Of a stretch of 63,210 nucleotides of DNA, positions 1 through 12,238 are shown one piece after another (position 1 is the stretch's first letter; every line of letters begins with the position of its first letter). This DNA is from Rickettsiales bacterium (GTDB lineage Bacteria; Pseudomonadota; Alphaproteobacteria; Rickettsiales; UBA1997): NCBI GenBank assembly GCA_044360285.1, contig JBIKKP010000002.1:1-63210 (forward strand), given 5' to 3'. The notes beneath the pieces were generated by a model. The model made no database searches. It worked only from the letters and a program-made list of their open reading frames with translations, and was not told the origin of the DNA. The translations under genes were made by a program, and so were the position numbers.

Positions 1-761
1 CGGTAAATATGAAGCTTCTTGCTCGCACGACGCGTGAAGTAAATTTAACAAATGAAGGTAGAGAGTTTTTTGAACGTTGTGAGGAGATAATGACAAAGGT
101 CGATCACCTAAATGACTTTCTTGATGAGTGCAAAGAAATCAGCGGAGTCCTGAAAATCGTGCTCCCGCCCTACTTCAGCAGATATCACATAATCCCATAT
201 TTCGAAGAATTTTTAGCACTTCATCCCAAGTTAAAACTCAACATCACCCTCACCGAAAATCCGGTTAACATCATAAAAGAAGGCTACGACCTACAAGTCA
301 GAATCCAAATTCCCTCAGAAGAAAATCTTGAGGTCGCACATCTTGCTTCCAATCACAAAATCGTCTGCGCTTCACCAAAATATCTCAAAAAACACGGCAC
401 ACCAAAAGAGCCGGAAGATCTGCTCAACCACAACTGCATAATCTTTGGCGAAAACAAAGCGTGGGAATTCCGTAACATAAAAACCAAAAAAATTACCAAA
501 CTCAACAAAATCGACGGCAACATAAAATGCGACAATGGCGAGATCATCAAAGAACTTACTTTGCTTGGTCTTGGCATCACCCTAAAATCTTCGCGCGATG
601 TTTCTGACGAACTTAAAAGTGGTAAGATTGTGCAACTTTTGCCCGACTACGAGATCCTTCACCAAACCAAATTCTACATCGTTTATCCATCAGGTCGCAG
701 CGACTCGCCGAAACTGAAAGCCTTCATCAAATTTTTTAAAGAAAAGTTGAGTGAAAAATAA
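1..761 (+). CDS. LysR-family transcriptional regulator, 5'-truncated by the window edge
   Basis: The reading frame is open from the left edge. '..LLARTTREVNLTNEGREFF' looks like the end of a LysR HTH/linker and is followed by a ~200-aa LysR substrate-binding-like domain. Confidence 0.75.
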   Translation, partial: VNMKLLARTTREVNLTNEGREFFERCEEIMTKVDHLNDFLDECKEISGVLKIVLPPYFSRYHIIPYFEEFLALHPKLKLNITLTENPVNIIKEGYDLQVRIQIPSEENLEVAHLASNHKIVCASPKYLKKHGTPKEPEDLLNHNCIIFGENKAWEFRNIKTKKITKLNKIDGNIKCDNGEIIKELTLLGLGITLKSSRDVSDELKSGKIVQLLPDYEILHQTKFYIVYPSGRSDSPKLKAFIKFFKEKLSEK

Positions 762-883: not shown

Positions 884-1741
884 ATGCCAAGCAAACCAAA
901 AACCATCGAGATATTTTTGCCAGACGGTGATCCAAAAGGAATCAGAACCGCAAGCATCACAAGCAGAACAATCGAAGCTACTTACATACCTCGTAAAAGA
1001 ATCGATTACGCTCGCAGCAAAGACAGCCTCGCCTCACCTGGCGTTTATGTCTTGGCAGCAAATTCGCAAAACAGCTCTAAGCCCGAAGTTTACATTGGCG
1101 AAACCGAAAACTTCATCCAGCGCTTAAACACGCATCACGCCAGAATGGATTTCTGGGAATACGCAATTGCCTTCACTTCCAAAACCGGTTTCTTTACCAA
1201 AACACACGTCAAATATCTTGAATGGCTTTTTTACCAAATTGCTACCAAAGCCAATCGCTGTAAGCTTCACAACTCAGAGCAATCAAAACCAAAAAAGCCT
1301 CACTTAAGCGAATCCGTTGAGGCTGATTTGATGGATAATTTTGAAACCATTTCGGTTTTGATTTCAGTTTTAGGTTTAAACATTTTCCAAGAAATTGCGC
1401 GCAGCGAAAAAGATAATTTTATTTTTGAGTGCAAGAGTGGCAAAGGATGTTACGGAAAAGGAAGATACACCGAAGAAGGTTTGGTGGTTTTTAAAGGCGC
1501 TAAATGCTCAAAAGAAATTTCTAAAAGATTTCAAGAAACCCATCCTCCTTTGATTCGAAACACTTTGATTGAAGATAAAATCTTAGTTGAAAAAGGTGCT
1601 TTCTACGAACTGCAAGAAGACTATCCCTTCACCAGTCCATCAACAGCAGCACAAATAATTTTAGGCTCACCAGCAAATGGTTGGACGAGCTGGAAACTTT
1701 CTGACGGAAAAACTTTGGACGAAATTTATAGGAAAAATTAA
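884..1741 (+). CDS. GIY-YIG nuclease domain protein with DUF4357-type C-terminal domain (methylase-associated)
   Basis: ATG start. GIY-YIG-like core 'GVYVL..VYIGETENFIQRLNTHH'. The C-terminal tail 'FTSPSTAAQIILGSPANGWTSWK' is typical of DUF4357. The stop lies 11 nt before the methylase start. Confidence 0.7.
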   Translation: MPSKPKTIEIFLPDGDPKGIRTASITSRTIEATYIPRKRIDYARSKDSLASPGVYVLAANSQNSSKPEVYIGETENFIQRLNTHHARMDFWEYAIAFTSKTGFFTKTHVKYLEWLFYQIATKANRCKLHNSEQSKPKKPHLSESVEADLMDNFETISVLISVLGLNIFQEIARSEKDNFIFECKSGKGCYGKGRYTEEGLVVFKGAKCSKEISKRFQETHPPLIRNTLIEDKILVEKGAFYELQEDYPFTSPSTAAQIILGSPANGWTSWKLSDGKTLDEIYRKN

Positions 1742-1752
1742 TAAACTACCAA

Positions 1753-3744
1753 ATGACAAACTTAGCTACGATCTTAAAGGATTCTGATTACAAATTGACT
1801 CAATTTAGCGAGTCAAAAATCAAAGCTTTGGAAAACAAAATTTTTGCCAAAGAAGGTAAGACTGGTTTTTATACCAACTGCCTTGTGCGCGAGAAAGAAA
1901 TTAAGCTCACTCCCGAAGAAACCATGCGCCAACTCTTTGTGATGGTCTTGAGTGAAGATTTTGGTTATCCAACAAAACGCCTTCAACTTGAATATAGCGT
2001 TGTTTTTGGGCGCGAAACAAAACGTGCCGATATTTGCATTTTTGACAAAGATAATCCAACCGCTGCTTATATTTTAGTTGAGCTAAAAAAGCCAAAACTC
2101 AAAGACGGTAAAGAGCAATTAAAAAGCTACTGCAACGCTACTGGAGCACCAATCGGAGTTTGGACTAATGGCGAGCAAATTTCTTTTTATCACCGCAAAG
2201 ATCCAAATTACTTTGAAGACATCCCAAACATCCCAAATGCTACTGAAAAACTTTCCGATGTTTTAGCAGAACGTTGGACAATTGATGATCTGATTAAACA
2301 CGACAAATTAGTTAATCAAAAAAAGACCTTAAAAGGAATCATTCTGGAAATGGAGGATGAGGTTCTAGCTAATGCTGGCGTGGATGTATTCGAAGAACTA
2401 TTTAAACTTATCTTCACCAAACTTTATGACGAGATGGAATCAGGACGTGACAAAAAGCGTCATCTGGTTTTCAAAAATTATGGCGACACTGAAAGCGAGC
2501 TCAAAGCCAAAATCCAAGACCTCTTCGACAAAGCTAAAAGAAAATGGGAAGGCGTTTTTTCTGAGGATGCAAAAATCCAACTAACCCAAAGCCACCTGGC
2601 TGTGTGTATTGCCTCACTTGAAACCATTAAGCTTTTCAACTCAAACCTCGAGGTAGTTGATGAAGCATTTGAATACCTCATCAACAAATCTAGCAAAGGC
2701 GAAAAAGGACAATATTTCACGCCACGCTATGTCATCGACATGTGCGTTAAAATGCTAAACCCGAAAGAAGAGGAAACTCTAATAGACACTGCATCAGGAA
2801 GTTGCGGGTTTCCTGTACATGGTATTTTCCACGTTTGGGAAAAAATTATGAATGAAGAAGGCTTAAGCAAAAGCCACTTATTCACAGCCGAGAAAAAACC
2901 AGCGCGTTGCGAAAACTATGTTCAAGAAAAAGTCTTCGCTATCGACTTCGATGAAAAAGCGGTGCGAGTTGGAAGAACTTTGAACCTGATTGCAGGCGAC
3001 GGCCAAACCAATGTTCTGCATTTAAATACCCTAGATTTTGAACGCTGGGATGAAAACACTAAAGAGGAAAGATGGCTCGATATCTACCTAGAAGGCTGGA
3101 AAAAATTAAAAAAACTCAGAAGTAAAAAAGACGACAATCATGATTTTGGTTTCGATGTTTTGATGGCAAATCCTCCCTTTGCTGGAGAAGTTAAGGAAAG
3201 CCGAATCCTTGCTAAATATGAGCTGGGTAAAAAAGAAAATGGAAAATACCAAACCAAAGTTGATCGAGATATTCTCTTTATTGAAAGAAATTTGAATTTT
3301 CTAAAACCTGGTGGACGTATGGCAGTTGTGCTTCCGCAAGGCCGCTTCAACAATTCATCCGATAAACAAATCCGCGAATTTATTGCAGAAAGATGCCGAA
3401 TTTTAGCGGTTGTCGGTCTTCACGGGAATGTTTTTAAACCTCACACCGGAACTAAAACCAGCGTGTTATTTGTGCAGAAGTGGAATGAGGACAAGAAAGC
3501 TGGTGCGCTTTGTCCAAAAATTGACGACTACCCTATTTTCTTTGCTACTATGCAAGAACCAAGCAAAGACAATTCAGGTGATAAAATTTACATTAAAAAC
3601 GCTGATGGCACACCAAAGCTCGACACTCACGGGCATTTGATCGTCAAACATGATCTCTTCAATCACGATGGATTAACCAAAGACGGCATCACAGAAGCCT
3701 TCATCGAATTTGCTAAAAAGGAGCGACTAAGTTTTTTTCTCTAA
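1753..3744 (+). CDS. hsdM: N6-adenine DNA methyltransferase (HsdM-like) with an N-terminal HsdR_N-type PD-(D/E)xK-like module
   Basis: 663 aa. SAM-binding motif 'LIDTASGSCGFP' and catalytic 'LMANPPFAGE' (NPPF). The N-terminal ~170 aa contain 'RADICIFD...YILVELKKP', a D...ExK pattern. Confidence 0.85.
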   Translation: MTNLATILKDSDYKLTQFSESKIKALENKIFAKEGKTGFYTNCLVREKEIKLTPEETMRQLFVMVLSEDFGYPTKRLQLEYSVVFGRETKRADICIFDKDNPTAAYILVELKKPKLKDGKEQLKSYCNATGAPIGVWTNGEQISFYHRKDPNYFEDIPNIPNATEKLSDVLAERWTIDDLIKHDKLVNQKKTLKGIILEMEDEVLANAGVDVFEELFKLIFTKLYDEMESGRDKKRHLVFKNYGDTESELKAKIQDLFDKAKRKWEGVFSEDAKIQLTQSHLAVCIASLETIKLFNSNLEVVDEAFEYLINKSSKGEKGQYFTPRYVIDMCVKMLNPKEEETLIDTASGSCGFPVHGIFHVWEKIMNEEGLSKSHLFTAEKKPARCENYVQEKVFAIDFDEKAVRVGRTLNLIAGDGQTNVLHLNTLDFERWDENTKEERWLDIYLEGWKKLKKLRSKKDDNHDFGFDVLMANPPFAGEVKESRILAKYELGKKENGKYQTKVDRDILFIERNLNFLKPGGRMAVVLPQGRFNNSSDKQIREFIAERCRILAVVGLHGNVFKPHTGTKTSVLFVQKWNEDKKAGALCPKIDDYPIFFATMQEPSKDNSGDKIYIKNADGTPKLDTHGHLIVKHDLFNHDGLTKDGITEAFIEFAKKERLSFFL

Positions 3745-3773: not shown

Positions 3774-5219
3774 TTGTTGGAAGGGCTGGAGATAAGTGAG
3801 GTGATGTTGAGTAGCTTGGAGTATAGCGGCAGATTAGACTCTGAGTATTACCGCCCAATGTTCTTACAATACGAGAGCAAGCTGAAAAGTAAAAATAGCT
3901 CCACCTTATCAACGCTTGCTAATTTTTTGATTGGTCCGTTTGGATCTGCTTTTACAGTTGATAACTACACAAGTGACAAAACTTATCGCTACATTCGTGG
4001 TAAAGATGTGAAGCAAATGAAGTTAATGGATGACGATAACGTTTATGTTCCAAAGTCAGATTTTGAAAGGCTTTCCAAGTATGCTCTAAAGGAAAATGAC
4101 ATTCTTGTTTCCGTTGTTGGAACACTTGGAAACGCCGCACTCATTCGTAAAGAAAACACTCCTGCAATTTTTAGCTGCAAAAGCACTGTTTTGAGGGTGC
4201 GGAATATCAACGCATCCTATCTGCTTGTTTACATCAATTCGAAATATGGACGATCTTTGTTATTGAGAAAGGAGCGTGGAGCCATACAGAAAGGTCTGAA
4301 CCTTGACGATTTGAAAACACTCGATGTCTATGTTGCAAATAAGGCGCTTCAGGATTCGGTTGAAAACATTCTGAATTTATCCATTACGAAGGAAAATGAG
4401 TCAAAATCCCTCTACACCAAAGCCGAAGCCTTACTCCTCAAATCTCTTGGCTTAGAAAATTTTTCTCCAAGCAGCAAAAACACTAACATCAAATCTTTCA
4501 AAAGATCCTTCCAGGCCACCAGCCGACTTGATGCCGAATACTACCAGCCGAAATATGAGGAGATAATCGACCATATCAAAACCCAACCTCATGCAAAATT
4601 GTCTGAATTGGTTACGATCAAGAAATCCATCGAGCCCGGCTCTGATGAATATTCTGACAACGAAGATGGTTTGCCATTTTTGCGCGTTGCCGACTACAAC
4701 AAATTTGGCATTACCGAGCCACAAAAAAAACTTAAAACCTCTTTCGTCACTGAAAATCAAAGCAAGTTAGACTCTTTGATGCCAAATGCTGAAACGATTT
4801 TATTTTCTAAAGATGGCAGCGTTGGAGAAGCTCATTGCTTGAGCAAAGATTCAAACTTCATCACATCTGGCGCTGTTTTGCACCTTACGGTTCGCGATAA
4901 GAAAAAGGTTTTGCCTGATTATTTGACGCTTGTTCTCAATTCAAAATTAGTCAAAATGCAAGCCGAGCGTGACGCCGGCGGATCGATCATTTTACACTGG
5001 CGAGTTGGTGAGATTGAAGAGGTTTTAGTTCCCGTTATCGACCCAAAAACCCAATCTCAAATCTCCTCCCTAGTCCAAGAAAGCTTCGCTCTAAAATCCA
5101 AAAGCGAAAAACTCCTCGAAACCGCCAAACAGGCCGTCGAAATGGCAATTGAAGAGTCAGAAGAAAAGGCAACTGCTTTTATCGACAAAGAATCAAGAAA
5201 TCTTTCTGATGTTGCATAA
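3774..5219 (+). CDS. hsdS: Restriction-modification specificity subunit (HsdS-like, two target-recognition domains)
   Basis: Two internally similar halves are each preceded by 'RLD(S/A)EYY(R/Q)P'. TRD-like blocks include 'DILVSVVGTLG' and 'ILFSKDGSVG'. The track start 3774 is TTG, and an ATG preceded by GAGG lies at 3804, so the true start is ambiguous. Confidence 0.8.
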   Translation: MLEGLEISEVMLSSLEYSGRLDSEYYRPMFLQYESKLKSKNSSTLSTLANFLIGPFGSAFTVDNYTSDKTYRYIRGKDVKQMKLMDDDNVYVPKSDFERLSKYALKENDILVSVVGTLGNAALIRKENTPAIFSCKSTVLRVRNINASYLLVYINSKYGRSLLLRKERGAIQKGLNLDDLKTLDVYVANKALQDSVENILNLSITKENESKSLYTKAEALLLKSLGLENFSPSSKNTNIKSFKRSFQATSRLDAEYYQPKYEEIIDHIKTQPHAKLSELVTIKKSIEPGSDEYSDNEDGLPFLRVADYNKFGITEPQKKLKTSFVTENQSKLDSLMPNAETILFSKDGSVGEAHCLSKDSNFITSGAVLHLTVRDKKKVLPDYLTLVLNSKLVKMQAERDAGGSIILHWRVGEIEEVLVPVIDPKTQSQISSLVQESFALKSKSEKLLETAKQAVEMAIEESEEKATAFIDKESRNLSDVA

Positions 5220-5988
5220 GCCAATAAATTTAAGCCAAACCCTCAACCTGGATCCTGAAACAAATATCGCTTACGAAGAAACTTTTAGAAAATATTTAGA
5301 CTTTATCGGTGACAATCCCCTTGTCCTTGGTGAGCGAATAAAATTCTCAAACAAGCCGATTAACAAAGGAGATCTTTGCTTTTCTGGTTTAGGCGGAAGA
5401 GGAATAATAAAAAAATTCGATAGGGATGAATGGAGACCTGGAGTTTGGCAAAAAGTTGATTTGAGTAGCGGTGAAATTACTGAAAACTATCTGATCTGGG
5501 TTCTGCAACAAAAACCGATTCTTGACTATCTAGAGCTTTTTAGCCAAGGATCTTTCATTTCATTGATTCCGAAACGGAAAGTTATCGAGCTAAAAATACC
5601 AAAACCAAAACGTGGTGCGGTTTACGAGATCAATAAAACTAAGTATCGCGATGAATACGATATTCTTTTATCAGAGCTGTCGAAATGCGATAAGAACGAC
5701 ATGTTCCTTTCGGGATCTATTCTGATTGGTTCAATAGCCGAAGGATTGGCTGAGGGTATTTTGCTAGATAAGGAAATCAAAAATGTCGAAGGCAAACCTC
5801 TTGGTGTGAAAATTATGGAGCTTGAAAAAACCGATGTTTCTGGTGCTTACATTGAAGCACTTAAGGAGATTAATAGGCTAAGAAAGAAGATTCACATCAA
5901 TCGACTAAGAGAATCCAAAATTCTTAAGGAAGACTTTTTGCGAGCAAAAGACAAGTTAGCGTATTTGATCAAAGAATTTGGTATTTAG
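5209..5988 (+). CDS. Hypothetical protein: half-TRD (HsdS-like) N-domain fused to a helical, HEPN-like C-domain
   Basis: I moved the start to ATG 5209, where ATGTTGCATAA overlaps the hsdS stop. 'KGDLCFSGLGGRG' and 'ENYLIWVLQQKP..LIPKRKVIELKIPKP' parallel both TRDs of the adjacent HsdS. The C-terminal half is helical and contains 'NRLRKKIH' (R-x5-H). Confidence 0.6.
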   Translation: MLHKPINLSQTLNLDPETNIAYEETFRKYLDFIGDNPLVLGERIKFSNKPINKGDLCFSGLGGRGIIKKFDRDEWRPGVWQKVDLSSGEITENYLIWVLQQKPILDYLELFSQGSFISLIPKRKVIELKIPKPKRGAVYEINKTKYRDEYDILLSELSKCDKNDMFLSGSILIGSIAEGLAEGILLDKEIKNVEGKPLGVKIMELEKTDVSGAYIEALKEINRLRKKIHINRLRESKILKEDFLRAKDKLAYLIKEFGI

Positions 5989-6365: not shown

Positions 6366-7496
6366 ATGGTAAAACCTACATCCTCTGTTTTTACAACTTC
6401 TTCATCTCAATCTGGCGCTACCAGGGAAGATAAAGATTCACGATATGGCGGCACGGATATTGGTTTTTTACCTCCTATCGAAGAAGAAACTGAGCAACAA
6501 CTGGAAGAAGAGCTCGATCCAGCCGAGGAAAAAGCGCAAAAAGAAGGTCAAGTTGCAGAAGGTCCAAGGCAAGATTCTCACAAAAAAACCACTGCATCAG
6601 CAAAAGATGATGATGATGAAGAAAAAGAAAATAGCGCCGTCAGAAAAGTGACTGAAGCAGCTTTCACAGCAATAGCAATGATAGCTAACTTCGTTGCCAA
6701 TCTTCTTGGCTTCAGACAAAAATTACAGAAAAGCAAACAAGGCGAACGAGATCAAAGAGGGTTAGATGCAGAGGAAGGTCTTGATGGCCCATCGCCAGAA
6801 GAAATAGCTAAAAAACAGGTCTCTCAACTTTTTGCAGCTTTCAGAAAAGCTATTGGCATTAAAGATGGTGATGCGCCAGAGCTAGAGACTGAATTACCAA
6901 CCGCACTTGGTTCAATAGAAAGTCCAGACGCAACCAGAGAAGAGCAAGCAAAGGCCGGAATGGGAATTCTAGCTAGAGAAGCAAAAGCTCATGCCGAAGG
7001 CAGATCTGAAGAAGGCGCAATGACCAGAAGAAGTCCGGGACTTGCTATGCCTCAAGGTGCGTTTAATGCACTTCGTCACTCTCTTGGACTTGATCCAGAA
7101 GATATGGAAGGATTTGCTAATGCGATGGTGACATATTGCCGAGTGACTCATATCAAAAAACCCGATGGAACAACAATTGAGATAACAGAATGGCGTCTTG
7201 AATCACCAAGTGCTAGACAAGCAATGGGTGAACCAGAACAAGCGCCAAGAACTTCTCCAAGAGTTGAAGAGGTTTTTGAAGAAGAAGGTGACAAAGAAGC
7301 ACCGCCACTAGCAATTGAAGATATAAGTGTCGACGGAGATGCAAGAGCTCTAGCCGCAGAAGTTGCTCCAGAATTACGCGCTTCTCTTGGTGATATCGGT
7401 GAACTTTCTGAAGCCGCAGGAGGCGAAGCTGCACACGGCACAACTCAAACACTCAGAGCAGGTCCTGGTCTTGTTGACACAGGTCGTGGTGGCTAA
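6366..7496 (+). CDS. Hypothetical acidic, low-complexity (E/A/G-rich) protein with one central hydrophobic segment
   Basis: 376-aa ORF with an ATG start and clear GAA/GCA-rich codon periodicity. It appears locally more GC-rich than its neighbours. It has no signal peptide and one hydrophobic stretch, 'AAFTAIAMIANFVANLLGF'. I recognise no family. Confidence 0.55.
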   Translation: MVKPTSSVFTTSSSQSGATREDKDSRYGGTDIGFLPPIEEETEQQLEEELDPAEEKAQKEGQVAEGPRQDSHKKTTASAKDDDDEEKENSAVRKVTEAAFTAIAMIANFVANLLGFRQKLQKSKQGERDQRGLDAEEGLDGPSPEEIAKKQVSQLFAAFRKAIGIKDGDAPELETELPTALGSIESPDATREEQAKAGMGILAREAKAHAEGRSEEGAMTRRSPGLAMPQGAFNALRHSLGLDPEDMEGFANAMVTYCRVTHIKKPDGTTIEITEWRLESPSARQAMGEPEQAPRTSPRVEEVFEEEGDKEAPPLAIEDISVDGDARALAAEVAPELRASLGDIGELSEAAGGEAAHGTTQTLRAGPGLVDTGRGG

Positions 7497-7523: not shown

Positions 7524-8741
7524 ATGAAAAAAATTTCCGTAAAAAATCCAGTAGTTGAAATTGACGGCGATGAAATGACGCGCGTGATTTGGAAGATGAT
7601 CAAAGAAAAATTGATCACACCTTATCTCGATTTGAACATCCGCTATTTCGACCTTAGCGTAGAAAATCGTGATGCAACTTCTGACCAAGTGACCATCGAT
7701 GCAGCTAATGCCATCAAGGAATGCGGCGTTGGCATCAAATGCGCCACAATCACTCCCGACGAAGCGCGCAAAAAAGAATTTAACCTCAAGGAAATTTGGA
7801 AATCACCAAACGGCACCATTCGCAACATTTTGGATGGCACAGTTTTTCGTGAACCAATAGTTTGCCGCAACGTCCCTCGCCTCGTTTCCAACTGGACCTC
7901 ACCAATCATCGTCGGCCGTCACGCTTTTGGCGATCAATATAAAGCCACAGATTTCGTCGTGCCTGGCAAAGGCAAACTCACCATCAAATTCGAAGGCGAG
8001 GATGGAAAAATAATCGAGCACGAAGTCTATAAATTCAAAGGCAGCGGCGTTGCTTTGGCGATGTATAACACTGAAGAATCAATCCGCGGTTTTGCTTATT
8101 CTTGCTTCAACCTTGCGCTGCAAAAAGGCTGGCCGCTTTATCTGTCGACCAAAAATACGATTCTAAAAAAATATGACGGCCGCTTCAAAGATATTTTCGC
8201 CGAAATTTTTGAGAAAGAATTCAAAGAAAAATTCGCTGAGAAAAAAATAGTTTACGAACACCGCCTAATTGATGACATGGTCGCCAGCGCCCTAAAATGG
8301 AGCGGCAGTTTCATCTGGGCCTGCAAAAATTATGACGGCGACGTGCAGTCAGATTCGGTTGCGCAAGGTTTTGGATCTTTGGGCCTGATGACTTCAGTTT
8401 TAATCACCCCAGATGGAAAAACCATGGAAGCTGAAGCAGCGCACGGCACGGTGACTCGCCACTTCCGCGATCACCAGGCGGGCAAACCAACTTCCACAAA
8501 TCCAATGGCATCAATTTTTGCCTGGACAAGAGGCCTTGAATTCCGCGGCAAACTTGACGGCAATGATGAGCTCATCGCCTTCTGCCACAAGCTTGAACAA
8601 GTTTGCATCGAAACTGTTGAGTTGGGAAAAATGACGAAAGACCTCGCCGTTTGCATCCACGGCAATTCTGCGAAACACGGTGAACATTATCTCTACACCG
8701 AAGAATTTTTGGATGCGGTTGCTAAACGTTTAGCGTCGTAA
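7524..8741 (+). CDS. icd: NADP-dependent isocitrate dehydrogenase, eukaryote-like (IDH1/2-type) homodimeric form
   Basis: 405 aa. The N-terminus '[34 protein letters not shown]' and 'GTVTRHFR' are hallmarks of the IDH1/2-like subfamily. Confidence 0.9.
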
Positions 8742-8793: not shown

Positions 8794-8888
8794 CCGTCAT
8801 CCTTGGAACGCGTTAGCGTTTCGAGGATCTCGTGCGTTTAGCGCAGAACATAACAAGATCCTCGAGGCCTTCGGCCTCAAGGATGACG
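8794..8888. repeat. Family-1 palindromic (cloverleaf) element, copy A
   Basis: CCGTCATCCTTG...CGAGGATCTCG...GATCCTCG...CAAGGATGACG, with self-complementary side arms AACGC/GCGTT and GAGGCC/GGCCTC. Confidence 0.9.
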
Positions 8889-8910
8889 AGTATGTTGAAA
8901 CGCGACTGTT

Positions 8911-9201
8911 TTACTTAGCCAAATCAAAATAAAGATCCCTCCAACTCGGATTAAAAGATTCAATCAGCCCTACTTTCGCACTTCTTGGAAAATGCTTTAG
9001 CTTCTTCTCCCTCGCTATCGCCTCTAGCACATCTTCAAAAACTTCGTAATAAACCAACTTGTCCAGATTGTACTTTGCAGAAAAACCCTTGAGCAGCTTG
9101 TGTTTATGCTGATAAATTCGACCAATCAAATCCGAAGTAACGCCGATATACAAGACGCCGTCTTTTTTGTTAGTGATGATGTAGACGAAGGAAAATTTCA
9201 T
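8911..9201 (-). CDS. Small GIY-YIG nuclease superfamily protein (UPF0213/URI-domain type)
   Basis: 96 aa. 'FVYIITNKKDGVLYIGVTSDLIGRIYQHK' is a GIY-YIG motif. The gene is bracketed by two nearly identical family-1 repeats. Confidence 0.8.
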   Translation of the reverse strand: MKFSFVYIITNKKDGVLYIGVTSDLIGRIYQHKHKLLKGFSAKYNLDKLVYYEVFEDVLEAIAREKKLKHFPRSAKVGLIESFNPSWRDLYFDLAK

Positions 9202-9228
9202 CGTGGTGAATTGCTTATACCCCCCCAG

Positions 9229-9324
9229 CCGTCATCCTTGGAACGCGTTAGCGTTTCGAGGATCTCGTGCGTCTTAGCGCAGAACATAACAAGATCCTCG
9301 AGGCCTTCGGCCTCAAGGATGACG
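9229..9324. repeat. Family-1 palindromic element, copy B (near-identical to copy A)
   Basis: Same sequence as copy A except for a 1-nt indel in the central loop. The preceding CCCCCAG is also shared with copy A. Confidence 0.9.
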
Positions 9325-9346
9325 TGATTTGGGTTTTGCTTTTCCC

Positions 9347-12238
9347 TCAAAACCGCTGCAACGCACCAACAAAAACCAGGTGCGAGTCAGCGGTTTTTTT
9401 ATGCTCGAAACCATAATTCACACTCAGCGTCGTATCGTCCTTATGCAGCAGCGACATCTCTAACCCAAGCTGCAGGCTGTTTGAATCCAGATTTGAAATT
9501 TTATTCTCAAAAGATTTTTGCTGATTTGTAAATCGTGCTGAAGTCACCGGCGCGTCATTTATCAAGGCTTGTCCGTAAGAAATTTTCACATTCGAAAAAA
9601 ACTTCCGAAATTCCGGCATCGTGGCAATGCGCGCGGCATAGCTCAAATCAAGGCCGGCGCGCGCTTCTAAAAAATTAGCCGAAACTCCTGAAACATTTAA
9701 ATTCAACTCATCAGCACCGTTTTCGCGGTAAGCTGAAATTTTATTTTGCACAAAATTCAGCGAAAATTGCGGCGCTAAATTGAAACCAAAACCAAGATTT
9801 TTTTGGTAAGAAATATCCGTTTTCAGCGCATAAGTTTGACCAGAATATCGCGCCAAAGCATTAGTGTTCAAAGCAGTGATTGCGCGGTTTGAATTGAAGT
9901 TGTTGAAAGCAAAACTTCCCAAAAAATCGACAAAAATTTTATCAAAATTTTTCGCCGCATAAAAATTCAACGCATAGCTGTCGATGATGTTTTCCTTCGA
10001 CTTGTCCAAGTGATTTATCTTTGAGCGCCCATAAGCAAAAGCCGCGCCAGCAGTGGTCTCATCAGCTATTTCTTTATCGATACCAAAAATAATTCCTACT
10101 GAATTTGTTTTAAAACCATCGTCATCTTTAATTGCATTTTGTAAGCTGGAAGCCCCAAAGCCGCGGCCCCAAAAGCCATGCGACAAATCTTGCGCAACAT
10201 CAAGATTATGAATTTTTTGCAAACGATTTTGTGAAATAGATTGGAAATTTCTGACAAAATTTGTTGTCGTAAGCAAACTTGCTTTGCTTGATTGAGGCGC
10301 CAATTGATTGATTGTGGCGGTAATTTCGTCGCTTGGTAAATTTGAAAAATCTAAAAATTTTTGAAATTCTAAAAGCTTGCCAGAGCTTGATCTTCCAAGT
10401 TGCACAAGGTTTTTATAAATGTTTTGTGCATTTTTATTTGGTGTCACTTCATTTGGTTGAAGATGGTTTGCAGCAAGAACTAGACTATTTCCAGAAGCAA
10501 TTGTTGTAAAACGCAGTAGGCCAAAAACATTCGACGATCCATTAACTGAAATGTTTTCTGCAGAAATTTCACTAAGCGACGAAGGCGCACTGGCATTGAC
10601 TAGATCGTAAGTTGTGCCATCGGCAATGTAATTTGAATCACCGACCAGAATTGCTAATTTTGTTCCTGAAGAAATTGTTGCAGCACCAGTAACATCAAGG
10701 CTTCCCACCCTATTTGCCGCAAGCGTTGTCACAAAAATATCGCCAGAATTTAGCGTAAAATTTCCAATAAAATTTTGATTTTTATCACCAACATCAAACC
10801 TTCCTGCGCCAGAACCAGCAAGGTTTCCAGTGATTGTTAAATTATCAGCTTCAGAAAAATTTAGCGCTCCATCAAGAAAAATGTTTGTTGCATAAATATC
10901 GTTCAAAGCAGTCAGTGCGCCGCTTGTAAGAATGTTTAGATTTTGCAATTGATGCAACGAATCGCCAATTGCACCAGAAGTTGAAAAAGAAATTCCATTT
11001 ACGTTGACCGTTCCAACCCCGCTTAAAACCCCATAAATAGGTGCTGCAGACGATGTCGCAAAATTCAAATTCAAAGTCGAATCCGCCGCAATATCAATTC
11101 GTGTTGCATCAATTTTTGCCGCCGAATTAAGCGTGCTGCCGCTTTGAATCGTAAGGTTGGACAGCTCGTCAAAATCTGCGCTTTGATTGAAAATTACTGA
11201 CGGATACAAACTTGATCCAACCACCACCGAACCCGCGCGTTCTGCGCCATTAACTGCTCCAGAGATTGTTCCGCCAAAAATGTTTAGCGTTCCCGCGCCA
11301 ACATAAACGCCGCCAGAAAGGTCGCCCAAGTTGTTAATTTGCGCACTGCTGCCCGCGTTATAGATGGCGTAATTTGTCGAATTTATCGCACCGCTGTTGT
11401 TGATTATAACATTATCGGCATCGTTTCGAATCCCGTAAATACTGGCTCCAGCGCCGCTGGTGATTGTGCCGGAATTTGTGATGAGGCTGTAATTGTCTCT
11501 GTTGTAAATGCCGTGCCCACTGCTTGAAATTGTTCCTGAATTTGTGATTGTTGAATAGCTCGTTGCGCTAGCTGTGGAAGCGCTTGCCGCACTTACATAA
11601 ATTCCGTGCGCAGCACTGCTTGTCGTTGTTGTAATCGTTCCAGAACTTGAAACTTGGTTCACATTTCCGCTTGCATAAATCCCGTAAACCCTTGTGGCAA
11701 TTGATCCAGCATTGTTTGCGCTGTTATTGTCGCCGTTCAAATAAATGCCGTAAGCAGTGGAGTTTATTGTACTGACGCTGCCGAAATTGCTTATCGAGTT
11801 ATTGTCGCCACCCACGTAAATTCCATATGCCGTTGTGCCCTGCGTGCTGATGGCGCCTTGGTTGATGACACTGGAATTATTGGTGATGCTAACGCCGCGC
11901 CCCGAAGCGCCGGTGGTTAAAATTGATGCGCCAAATGCGTTGGTGATGATGTTGTAATTGCCGCTTGTCCTGATGCCGTAAGAACCTGAAATGGTGCCGC
12001 TTGCACCGGTGGCGATGTTGTGTAAATTGGTGATGCGATTTGGCGAGCCACTAGTTCCAACAAGCGTGCTTGAAATTGCAATTCCGCTGGTGGTGATGTC
12101 AGAGCTGGTGAGATAATTTGTATCGCCCGCACCAAGCACAACCGCGCCGGCGCTGGTTGTGGAGACGATTTGGAAAAAAAGAAAAAACGAAAAAATTTCG
12201 ACGATTTTCTTCGTCGAAGCAGCAAGTGGTGTGGGCAT
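9347..12238 (-). CDS. Autotransporter outer-membrane protein (repeat-rich passenger plus C-terminal beta-barrel)
   Basis: 963 aa. The N-terminus is hydrophobic and signal-like. The G/S/N/T-rich passenger has recurring '(A/H)(Y/H)GIY' units. The C-terminal ~280 aa show alternating beta-strand character and end '...VFVGALQRF' with a terminal Phe. Confidence 0.85.
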   Translation of the reverse strand: MPTPLAASTKKIVEIFSFFLFFQIVSTTSAGAVVLGAGDTNYLTSSDITTSGIAISSTLVGTSGSPNRITNLHNIATGASGTISGSYGIRTSGNYNIITNAFGASILTTGASGRGVSITNNSSVINQGAISTQGTTAYGIYVGGDNNSISNFGSVSTINSTAYGIYLNGDNNSANNAGSIATRVYGIYASGNVNQVSSSGTITTTTSSAAHGIYVSAASASTASATSYSTITNSGTISSSGHGIYNRDNYSLITNSGTITSGAGASIYGIRNDADNVIINNSGAINSTNYAIYNAGSSAQINNLGDLSGGVYVGAGTLNIFGGTISGAVNGAERAGSVVVGSSLYPSVIFNQSADFDELSNLTIQSGSTLNSAAKIDATRIDIAADSTLNLNFATSSAAPIYGVLSGVGTVNVNGISFSTSGAIGDSLHQLQNLNILTSGALTALNDIYATNIFLDGALNFSEADNLTITGNLAGSGAGRFDVGDKNQNFIGNFTLNSGDIFVTTLAANRVGSLDVTGAATISSGTKLAILVGDSNYIADGTTYDLVNASAPSSLSEISAENISVNGSSNVFGLLRFTTIASGNSLVLAANHLQPNEVTPNKNAQNIYKNLVQLGRSSSGKLLEFQKFLDFSNLPSDEITATINQLAPQSSKASLLTTTNFVRNFQSISQNRLQKIHNLDVAQDLSHGFWGRGFGASSLQNAIKDDDGFKTNSVGIIFGIDKEIADETTAGAAFAYGRSKINHLDKSKENIIDSYALNFYAAKNFDKIFVDFLGSFAFNNFNSNRAITALNTNALARYSGQTYALKTDISYQKNLGFGFNLAPQFSLNFVQNKISAYRENGADELNLNVSGVSANFLEARAGLDLSYAARIATMPEFRKFFSNVKISYGQALINDAPVTSARFTNQQKSFENKISNLDSNSLQLGLEMSLLHKDDTTLSVNYGFEHKKTADSHLVFVGALQRF

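Follow-up and report, generated by a model that had tools for sequence, protein, structure and literature searches.

What does a small gene whose start codon lies inside the end of an hsdS gene contribute to the restriction-modification (R-M) operon in which it sits? The question is raised by a 63,210-nucleotide stretch of DNA from a Rickettsiales bacterium (assembly GCA_044360285.1, contig JBIKKP010000002.1, positions 1 to 63,210 of the forward strand; hereafter, the window), in which a gene here called gene X (5209..5988) follows the genes for a restriction-methylase fusion protein (RM, or M in descriptions of gene order) and an HsdS-type specificity subunit (S). A preliminary description of this DNA had suggested that X couples half of a target recognition domain (TRD) to a HEPN-like helical domain, and that it might be a toxin tethered to the R-M system after the manner of PrrC. 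The analysis reported here indicates that X belongs to a small family of selected genes, that its N-terminal domain descends from an HsdS half-subunit and that its C-terminal domain probably has a HEPN fold, an architecture compatible with an accessory effector of the host enzyme.

Gene X belongs to a family under selection

Exhaustive phmmer searching of 1.84 billion cluster representatives recovered 19 relatives of X, mostly full length (269-290 amino acids) and 22-42% identical to it. Later searches, which included metagenomes and found the relatives there with a sub-clade alignment, enlarged the family to about 25 full-length homologues in the same range of identity (22-42%). The family alignment used for profile comparisons and structure prediction holds 23 sequences; it reveals conservation over the whole length of the protein and contains no frameshift. 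Three metagenome assemblies carry the identical gene with the same surroundings; a 99%-identical variant is set apart from it by four synonymous and two conservative non-synonymous codons. Comparison with an 85%-identical relative at another locus (L087) over codons 124-259 yielded a synonymous divergence (dS) of 1.04 and a non-synonymous divergence (dN) of 0.083, that is, a dN/dS of 0.08. The L087 relative is itself a 5'-truncated remnant of an X homologue (2397-2807, starting at residue 124), from which the upstream R-M genes are gone. Its neighbors are a tyrosine integrase gene and a DUF8370 gene, and the rest of the region consists of housekeeping genes.

The family is sparsely represented in general resources. 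A word-indexed search of 5.8 billion proteins with the single X sequence returned X itself and nothing else, and the same kind of search with X alignments returned few members. No match to X was found in Pfam, NCBIfam or PDB sequences, and the matches to PADLOC type I specificity models (E 0.009) and to one PHROG were marginal; two scans of viral contigs detected no relatives. The preliminary description had itself allowed that X might be a decayed hsdS duplicate. Full-length, frameshift-free homologues, whole-length conservation and a dN/dS of 0.08 lead us to reject that reading, and the same ratio and homologues rule out a pseudogene. On these comparisons, X is a real gene under selection.

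The N-terminal domain derives from an HsdS half-subunit

BLASTP comparison of X with the adjacent HsdS detected nothing (best E = 12), and this absence of pairwise similarity rules out a recent duplication of the neighbouring TRD. Profile comparison of the 23-sequence X family with 61 HsdS proteins from related loci, performed with hhalign, aligned residues 50-157 of X with residues 104-225 of HsdS at a probability of 92.5% (E 5e-7, score 58.2), whereas 30 column-shuffled controls scored 11-20 (maximum 19.7) and the reversed alignment scored 13.7. The alignment pairs KGDLCFSGL-GGRG with ENDILVSVV-GTLG, ENYLIWVLQQKP with ASYLLVYINSKY and ELKIPKP with LKTLDVYV, which is the register in which the preliminary description had set the N-terminal half of X against the distal part of the neighbouring TRDs. 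Weak independent support comes from the PADLOC Specificity_I model, which matches residues 42-133 (E 0.009). X itself falls below the cut-off of the Pfam Methylase_S model; a distant metagenome relative of 342 amino acids with the same C-terminal domain (L102) lies above it (34.4 bits, cut-off 22).

Structural comparison points in the same direction. The AlphaFold2 (AF2) model of X computed with the 23-sequence alignment reached a mean predicted local distance difference test (pLDDT) of 83.4, as opposed to an unusable 34 without an alignment. The best PDB matches of this model in Foldseek are the S subunits of PacII (7vru_C) and BsaXI (8w0p_C) and those of M. genitalium and M. jannaschii (1ydx, 1yf2). 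Also among them are Esub1, a half-S protein, and the CamA, M.TaqI and M.BseCI TRDs. The matches obtained in the viral library BFVD are likewise methyltransferase specificity domains.

The homology may extend to the very start of the protein. A permissive (greedy) hhalign run paired the segment nLdaeFnI..kkY of X with the RLDsEYf/RLDsEYY motif of HsdS, a tentative pairing that lies outside the confident local alignment, and the same run, with the same reservation, left HsdS residues ~40-95, about 55 residues of the proximal TRD, without a counterpart in X. The paper on Esub1 (PMC11754733) names R26 and K31 of 5YBB among the DNA-contacting residues of solved S-DNA complexes; going by residue number, both are close to the start of that S subunit. 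With some 55 TRD residues missing, sequence-specific DNA recognition by X is unlikely. Nor does X have the make-up of a functional S subunit: it holds a single TRD remnant, and its helical part is unlike the conserved regions of S (hhalign score 14). That score amounts to noise and also rules out an origin of the C-terminal domain from the coiled-coil regions of HsdS. Profiles and model together trace the N-terminal domain of X to an HsdS half-subunit from which a proximal segment was lost; the label half-TRD, used in the preliminary description, is fair.

A possible ancestral state is found in related R-M loci. At three of the 80 loci with the closest methylases, half-hsdS open reading frames occupy the position of X, directly 3' of a full hsdS gene (L031, 11373-12149; L051, 11466-12182; L081, 11502-12251). 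They comprise a second TRD and a conserved helix, and are ~48% identical to the second half of the S subunit in the window. These genes may be spare specificity cassettes. Their presence in the slot taken by X suggests that X originated from a downstream half-hsdS gene that gained a HEPN-like domain.

The C-terminal domain is a HEPN-like bundle with three near-invariant residues

The C-terminal half of X, described beforehand as all-helical, is so in the AF2 model, with helices at residues 143-162, 166-187, 198-206, 212-227, 230-233 and 239-257 and pLDDT values mostly of 87-94 over residues 150-240. The predicted arrangement is a four-helix up-down bundle with an insert (198-206) between helices 2 and 3, as expected of HEPN domains, which span about 100-120 residues. 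In Foldseek, it matches the HEPN proteins AF_0298 (2hsb; probability 1.00, TMt 0.61), TM0613 (1o3u; TMt 0.60) and ST0689 (1wol; TMt 0.62), with probabilities of 0.82-1.00 across these three structures, as well as a HEPN toxin (7bxo_F, 0.55) and, more weakly, AbiV.

Near-invariance in the X family is limited to three residues, E178, R225 and H229, all of which remain invariant when L102 and a further relative, L101, are added. The model places E178 in helix 2 (166-187), R225 at the end of helix 3 (212-227) and H229 in the loop after it. HEPN RNase sites consist of a conserved acidic residue in helix 2 and an Rx4-6H motif (PMC3710099), and the positions of E178, R225 and H229 correspond to them; the Ex3[KR] context in which this acidic residue often stands is absent from X. 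The preliminary description had made its reading depend on an R and an H conserved among homologues, which R225 and H229 are, and had located them in the string NRLRKKIH. That string is present, at residues 222-229, but the Rx5H spacing read from it relies on R223, which is not conserved. The conserved family motif is instead R-[N]-x-[IV]-H, with Rx3H spacing (R225-H229), and is shared by L101 and L102; the canonical form RNxA[IV]H (Rx4H) is found in five members only (P0011-P0014 and P0017). HEPN motifs carry a polar residue (N, D or H) directly after the conserved R. Of the 22 members that cover the motif, 20 have N here; the two others, the window copy and P0003, which is 85% identical to it, have K.

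The domain is also found away from TRDs. At L101 (925-3287), a 322-amino-acid protein joins an X-type C-terminal domain (E...RNLIHP) to an N-terminal part of unrelated type, which is how a portable effector domain would be expected to behave. The start of this gene overlaps the stop of a DUF4062/HATPase_c_4/HTH gene, and R-M context is absent there. Based on the predicted structure, we consider it probable that the C-terminal domain of X has a HEPN fold.

Gene X is coupled to a type IIB-like restriction-modification module

The 663-amino-acid protein encoded upstream of hsdS matches HSDR_N_2 (1.8e-28) and N6_Mtase (6.6e-30) in Pfam and the PADLOC MTase_I model PDLC03034 (1175 bits), and its D...ExK nuclease motif (ADICIF...VELKKP) is conserved in all relatives examined. 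The preliminary description had taken the two upstream genes for an HsdR-less M/S pair; this does not hold, as the putative M protein carries a conserved PD..ExK domain (HSDR_N_2) of its own. Its closest PDB relative is RM.BsaXI, a type IIB enzyme (E 6.8e-21), with similarity confined to the methyltransferase part (residues 210-580). The HsdS protein matches PADLOC Specificity_I and mad5 and, below cut-off, the NCBIfam MADS5-like model; for the RM/S pair as a whole, the nearest PADLOC and NCBIfam entries are type I and MADS2/MADS5 components, below curated cut-offs. With a single polypeptide that unites PD-(D/E)xK nuclease and N6-adenine (N6A) methyltransferase domains, and a separate, adjacent S subunit, the module is best described, from its sequence, as a type IIB-like RM+S system.

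Across its 80 closest loci, the best 80 species-representative loci returned, the methylase shows 70-84% identity (best 84%); these loci are spread over many phyla, and the module is therefore horizontally mobile. Its G+C content, 38-41% as against 45-50% in the downstream housekeeping genes, is consistent with an acquired island. A gene for a GIY-YIG/DUF4357 protein ends 11 nt upstream of the methylase gene, and a 36%-identical homologue of it (8874-9701) is located directly 3' of the X homologue at another locus (L095); this protein may belong to the island as well.

X is tightly joined to hsdS. Read directly from the sequence, its ATG (5209-5211) lies 8 nt ahead of the hsdS TAA (5217-5219), so that the two genes overlap in ATGTTGCATAA, as the preliminary description had stated. 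The tight coupling claimed there is likewise seen in relatives: the upstream hsdS stop is overlapped or abutted at six loci, comprising the window, L093 and L094 (ATGA), L090 (TAAATG) and L097 and L099 (4-nt gap). An alternative in-frame TTG exists at 5149; the start at 5209 is favored by the gene calls in the three metagenome assemblies and by homologue N-termini (MLKKIINF in P0002, MLHKPINL in X). A promoter and terminator scan found no terminator-like site and no convincing promoter between hsdS and X; the scan was uninformative overall, promoter-like sites being rarer than in shuffled sequence. An Rfam search of the window returned zero matches.

Relatives of X recur in the same kind of operon

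The fusion of a TRD remnant to a HEPN-like domain lies beside or inside an operon of the same kind in 9 of 11 other independent contexts, and every relative of X with enough flanking DNA is linked to one. The order is DUF4357-M-S-X in the window, M-S-X at L091 and HTH-M-S-X-serine recombinase at L093; at L095 it reads HTH-M-S-orf207-X-DUF4357, flanked by integrases, and at L099 a longer HSDR_N_2/N6_Mtase protein (902 amino acids) precedes S and X. Short contigs preserve S-X at L090, L094 and L097. In a second arrangement (L084-L086; L084, 122-8614), the order is M-SoFic-Mrr_cat-X-OLD/AriA-like ATPase-S. L088 (2131-3060) shows this arrangement in decay: X is intact, and only a 33-amino-acid remnant of S follows it. 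The methylases linked to X relatives are only 26-74% identical to that of the window, so that the association is not simple co-inheritance. A survey for recurrence beside HsdR-less M/S pairs had been advised in the preliminary description: the fusion does recur beside M/S pairs, but these are not devoid of a nuclease.

A possible function for X and the alternatives to it

By analogy with PrrC, we propose that X is an accessory HEPN-like effector of the type IIB-like R-M module, a proposal to which we assign an even chance of being correct. Its N-terminal domain would be the product of a former half-hsdS gene, retaining the S N-terminal motif, a shortened TRD and the start of the conserved helix. 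It would no longer specify DNA, and would serve instead as a handle by which X is brought to the RM/S complex or to its DNA site. E178, R225 and H229 would form a metal-independent RNase site within a divergent HEPN bundle. Co-transcribed and translationally coupled with hsdS, X would be produced together with S and kept inactive. Once a phage disabled or overwhelmed the R-M complex, the HEPN-like domain would cut RNA and growth of the infected cell would stop, the outcome being a second, abortive line of defence of the kind that PrrC provides with EcoprrI.

Several observations weigh against this proposal, at the level of the domain as well as that of the operon. With E-values of 0.09-1.0, the Foldseek matches to HEPN structures are weak, and helical bundles are prone to promiscuous matching. 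When all 23 family members were scanned against Pfam, none matched a HEPN model at E <= 1 and no consistent family emerged, and sequence and profile searches of PDB chains gave no significant HEPN or S match, the best profile match ('Dandelion-hepn', 9wx2) being non-significant at E 1.5. The HEPN fold foreseen in the preliminary description is thus supported by the structural comparison of the AF2 model but not by HEPN sequence profiles. Furthermore, Rx3H is one residue short of the Rx4-6H range of the HEPN family, and the window copy has K for the usual polar N after R225. It is because of the spacing, this K and the lack of a profile match that we name the domain HEPN-like only, and whether it acts as a catalytic RNase seems to us evenly balanced. 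No antitoxin or other neutralizer of X is evident. Searches with tblastn showed X to be absent from all 80 closest methylase loci; the R-M module therefore does not need X, which is a rare, optional accessory of it. Finally, the R-M system at L088 is destroyed, yet X there is intact. Such survival is unexpected for a toxin silenced solely by the R-M complex, and argues against a strict dependence on that complex for silencing.

Some of these points would be accommodated if X were instead a non-toxic structural or regulatory subunit, a mimic of half an S subunit that dimerizes through its helical domain. Assembled with the RM protein, it would provide a scaffold or an alternative specificity, or act as a decoy by which the balance between restriction and methylation is adjusted; E178, R225 and H229 would then bind a ligand, a nucleotide or a protein. 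HEPN domains without catalysis do serve as binding domains (PMC3710099), and both Rx3H and the change of N to K are atypical for active HEPN RNases. The homology of the N-terminal domain to HsdS, including the S N-terminal motif, the presence among the fold matches of Esub1, a half-S homodimer that resembles a whole S subunit, the spare half-hsdS genes in the X slot of relatives and the tolerance of X without an R-M system at L088 all agree with such a role. However, the ~55 missing TRD residues make DNA specification by X unlikely, its C-terminal domain is unlike the M-binding conserved helices of S (score 14) and the same domain occurs without a TRD at L101. Moreover, the strict conservation of E...R-N-x-x-H at HEPN site positions, across proteins that are only 22-42% identical, is most simply explained as catalysis. 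We regard a non-toxic mimic as rather unlikely.

A similarly low likelihood attaches to the possibility that X is an autonomous abortive-infection or toxin HEPN effector, lodged in R-M operons without a physical link to RM/S, whose TRD-like domain senses DNA or a phage product. Independent defence genes embedded in multi-gene systems are documented (bioRxiv 10.1101/2024.01.29.577857), and at L084-L086 the insertion between M and S contains SoFic, Mrr_cat and the OLD/AriA-like ATPase besides X, four unrelated defence genes in all. Most systems of this type lack X, and L088 retains X alone. Yet X is always associated with the same kind of methylase (HSDR_N_2 + N6_Mtase) and S, even though the methylases are 26-74% identical, its start overlaps or abuts the hsdS stop at six loci and its N-terminal domain is derived from that very type of subunit, all of which speak against this reading.

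Within the proposal of an R-M-linked effector, a more specific mechanism can be envisaged. HEPN proteins usually dimerize, and a dimer of X formed through the HEPN-like domain could mimic a whole S subunit, with two TRD remnants on a helical body, and take the position of S on the RM subunits or pair with S. A composite RNase site at the interface would be masked until a phage anti-restriction factor pried the complex apart. We consider this model rather unlikely.

By far the least credible explanation is that X has no function, being either an open reading frame called in error or an hsdS duplicate in decay, an idea to which the self-match in the word-indexed search, the lack of a Pfam, NCBIfam or PHROG family and the truncated remnant at L087 would lend themselves, but which is contradicted by frameshift-free full-length homologues at 22-42% identity, a dN/dS of 0.08, the conserved motifs and a fold prediction that is confident once an alignment is given.

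Features of the window

The elements discussed above are collected in Table 1, together with neighboring genes. The acidic open reading frame downstream of X is of low complexity, rich in E, A, G and D, has a G+C content above that of the R-M island and is called as a gene in all assemblies. Two further genes on the reverse strand are unrelated to X: a stand-alone GIY-YIG protein of 96 amino acids (8911-9201) and, adjoining it, an autotransporter of 963 amino acids with a highly repetitive passenger domain (9347-12238).

Table 1. Position and supporting evidence of gene X, its predicted domains and the genes around it
Feature	Position	Strand	Evidence
LysR regulator	9-761	+	
GIY-YIG/DUF4357 protein (PADLOC candidate PDC-S14)	884..1741	+	Pfam DUF4357 1.9e-22; PDC-S14 325.6 bits
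Restriction-methylase fusion, 663 aa: N-terminal PD..ExK (HSDR_N_2), then N6-adenine methyltransferase	1753..3744	+	Pfam, PADLOC
hsdS-type specificity subunit, 481 aa, two TRDs	3774..5219	+	Pfam Methylase_S E 1.5e-13
Gene X, 259 aa: predicted HsdS-derived N-terminal domain and HEPN-like C-terminal domain	5209..5988	+	Open reading frame, homologues, AF2 model
Overlap of X start and hsdS stop, 11 nt, ATGTTGCATAA	5209..5219	+	Read from sequence
X residues 1-49, putative diverged counterpart of the HsdS N-terminal RLDxEYY region	5209..5355	+	Greedy hhalign, tentative
X residues 50-142, predicted distal part of TRD (motifs KGDL, TxxYLLW, DYLxLF..G, LxIPxPK)	5356..5634	+	hhalign, Foldseek, BFVD
X residues 143-259, predicted HEPN-like helical bundle	5635..5985	+	AF2 model, Foldseek
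E178 codon, near-invariant acidic residue in helix 2	5740..5742	+	Family alignments
R225-H229 motif stretch	5881..5895	+	R and H near-invariant; Rx3H; N to K in window copy
Acidic open reading frame, 376 aa, no Pfam match	6366-7496	+	
Isocitrate dehydrogenase	7524-8741	+	

Comparison with known systems

The host module resembles the type IIB systems BsaXI and BcgI, in which a fusion of PD..ExK nuclease and gamma-type N6A methyltransferase is likewise served by a separate S subunit with two TRDs, and the S subunit of BsaXI is also among the best fold matches of X. To this very widespread and highly conserved BsaXI-like RM+S module, X adds an accessory gene. In its overall layout, a single TRD-like head followed by helices, X is comparable to the half-S protein Esub1 of Streptococcus pyogenes (8vsq/8vsr), with which its model shares 186-187 aligned columns (TMt 0.40-0.45). 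The TRD of X, however, lacks ~55 proximal residues, and where half-S proteins have coiled-coil dimerization helices, X has a HEPN-like bundle with an E/R/H site.

The presence of HEPN domains in R-M operons is itself a known theme. Links to R-M operons are recorded for at least 16 HEPN clades, and a second, abortive line of defence has been proposed generally for such proteins and shown for PrrC; according to the same survey, these domains are fused to endonuclease, helicase and ATPase modules, and fusion to the TRD of an S subunit is not described in it (PMC3710099). The R-M-embedded families reported by Anantharaman et al. 2013 (AbiU2, AbiJ, ApeA, EC042_2821/DUF3644, pEK499_p136 and others) are, like X, small proteins with an acidic residue in helix 2 and an R...H ending helix 3, but Pfam HEPN models miss all 23 X members and the spacing in X is one residue shorter. 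Full-text literature searches turned up no account of a HEPN-type domain joined to the TRD of a specificity subunit. The preliminary description had not recognized the fusion as a described system, and its absence from Pfam, NCBIfam, PADLOC and PHROGs, together with the lack of a published account in those searches, bears this out. On these searches, it is the family, the architecture and the motif spacing that are new. If the Rx3H site were active, the accepted range of the HEPN motif would need to be widened.

The closest functional parallel is PrrC, which accompanies the type Ic enzyme EcoprrI, and with it RloC. In the prr locus, prrC follows hsdS, and X likewise comes directly after hsdS in its R-M operon. 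The C-terminal domains of both proteins belong to or resemble the HEPN RNase class, and the role predicted for X is, as with PrrC, that of a latent effector in the second line of defence whose activity depends on how the R-M complex fares. The two also differ in several respects. No sequence similarity between them is detectable, the PrrC motif is canonical for HEPN while that of X is Rx3H, and the partner of PrrC is an HsdMSR type I enzyme whereas that of X is a BsaXI-like RM fusion with an S subunit. In addition, the N-terminal regulator of PrrC is an ABC-type NTPase, a domain for which Pfam, PADLOC and fold searches gave no indication in X, whose N-terminal domain is predicted to be an HsdS-derived TRD remnant. 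PrrC, with its ATPase domain, is the only well-worked example of how an R-M-embedded HEPN protein is coupled to the state of the restriction complex. The presence in X of a putative regulatory module that is recognizably a cut-down copy of the enzyme's own S subunit suggests the hypothesis of docking or sensing by subunit mimicry. If the dimer of X does stand in for an S subunit, such mimicry would connect an abortive-infection RNase to a restriction enzyme in a manner not described before.

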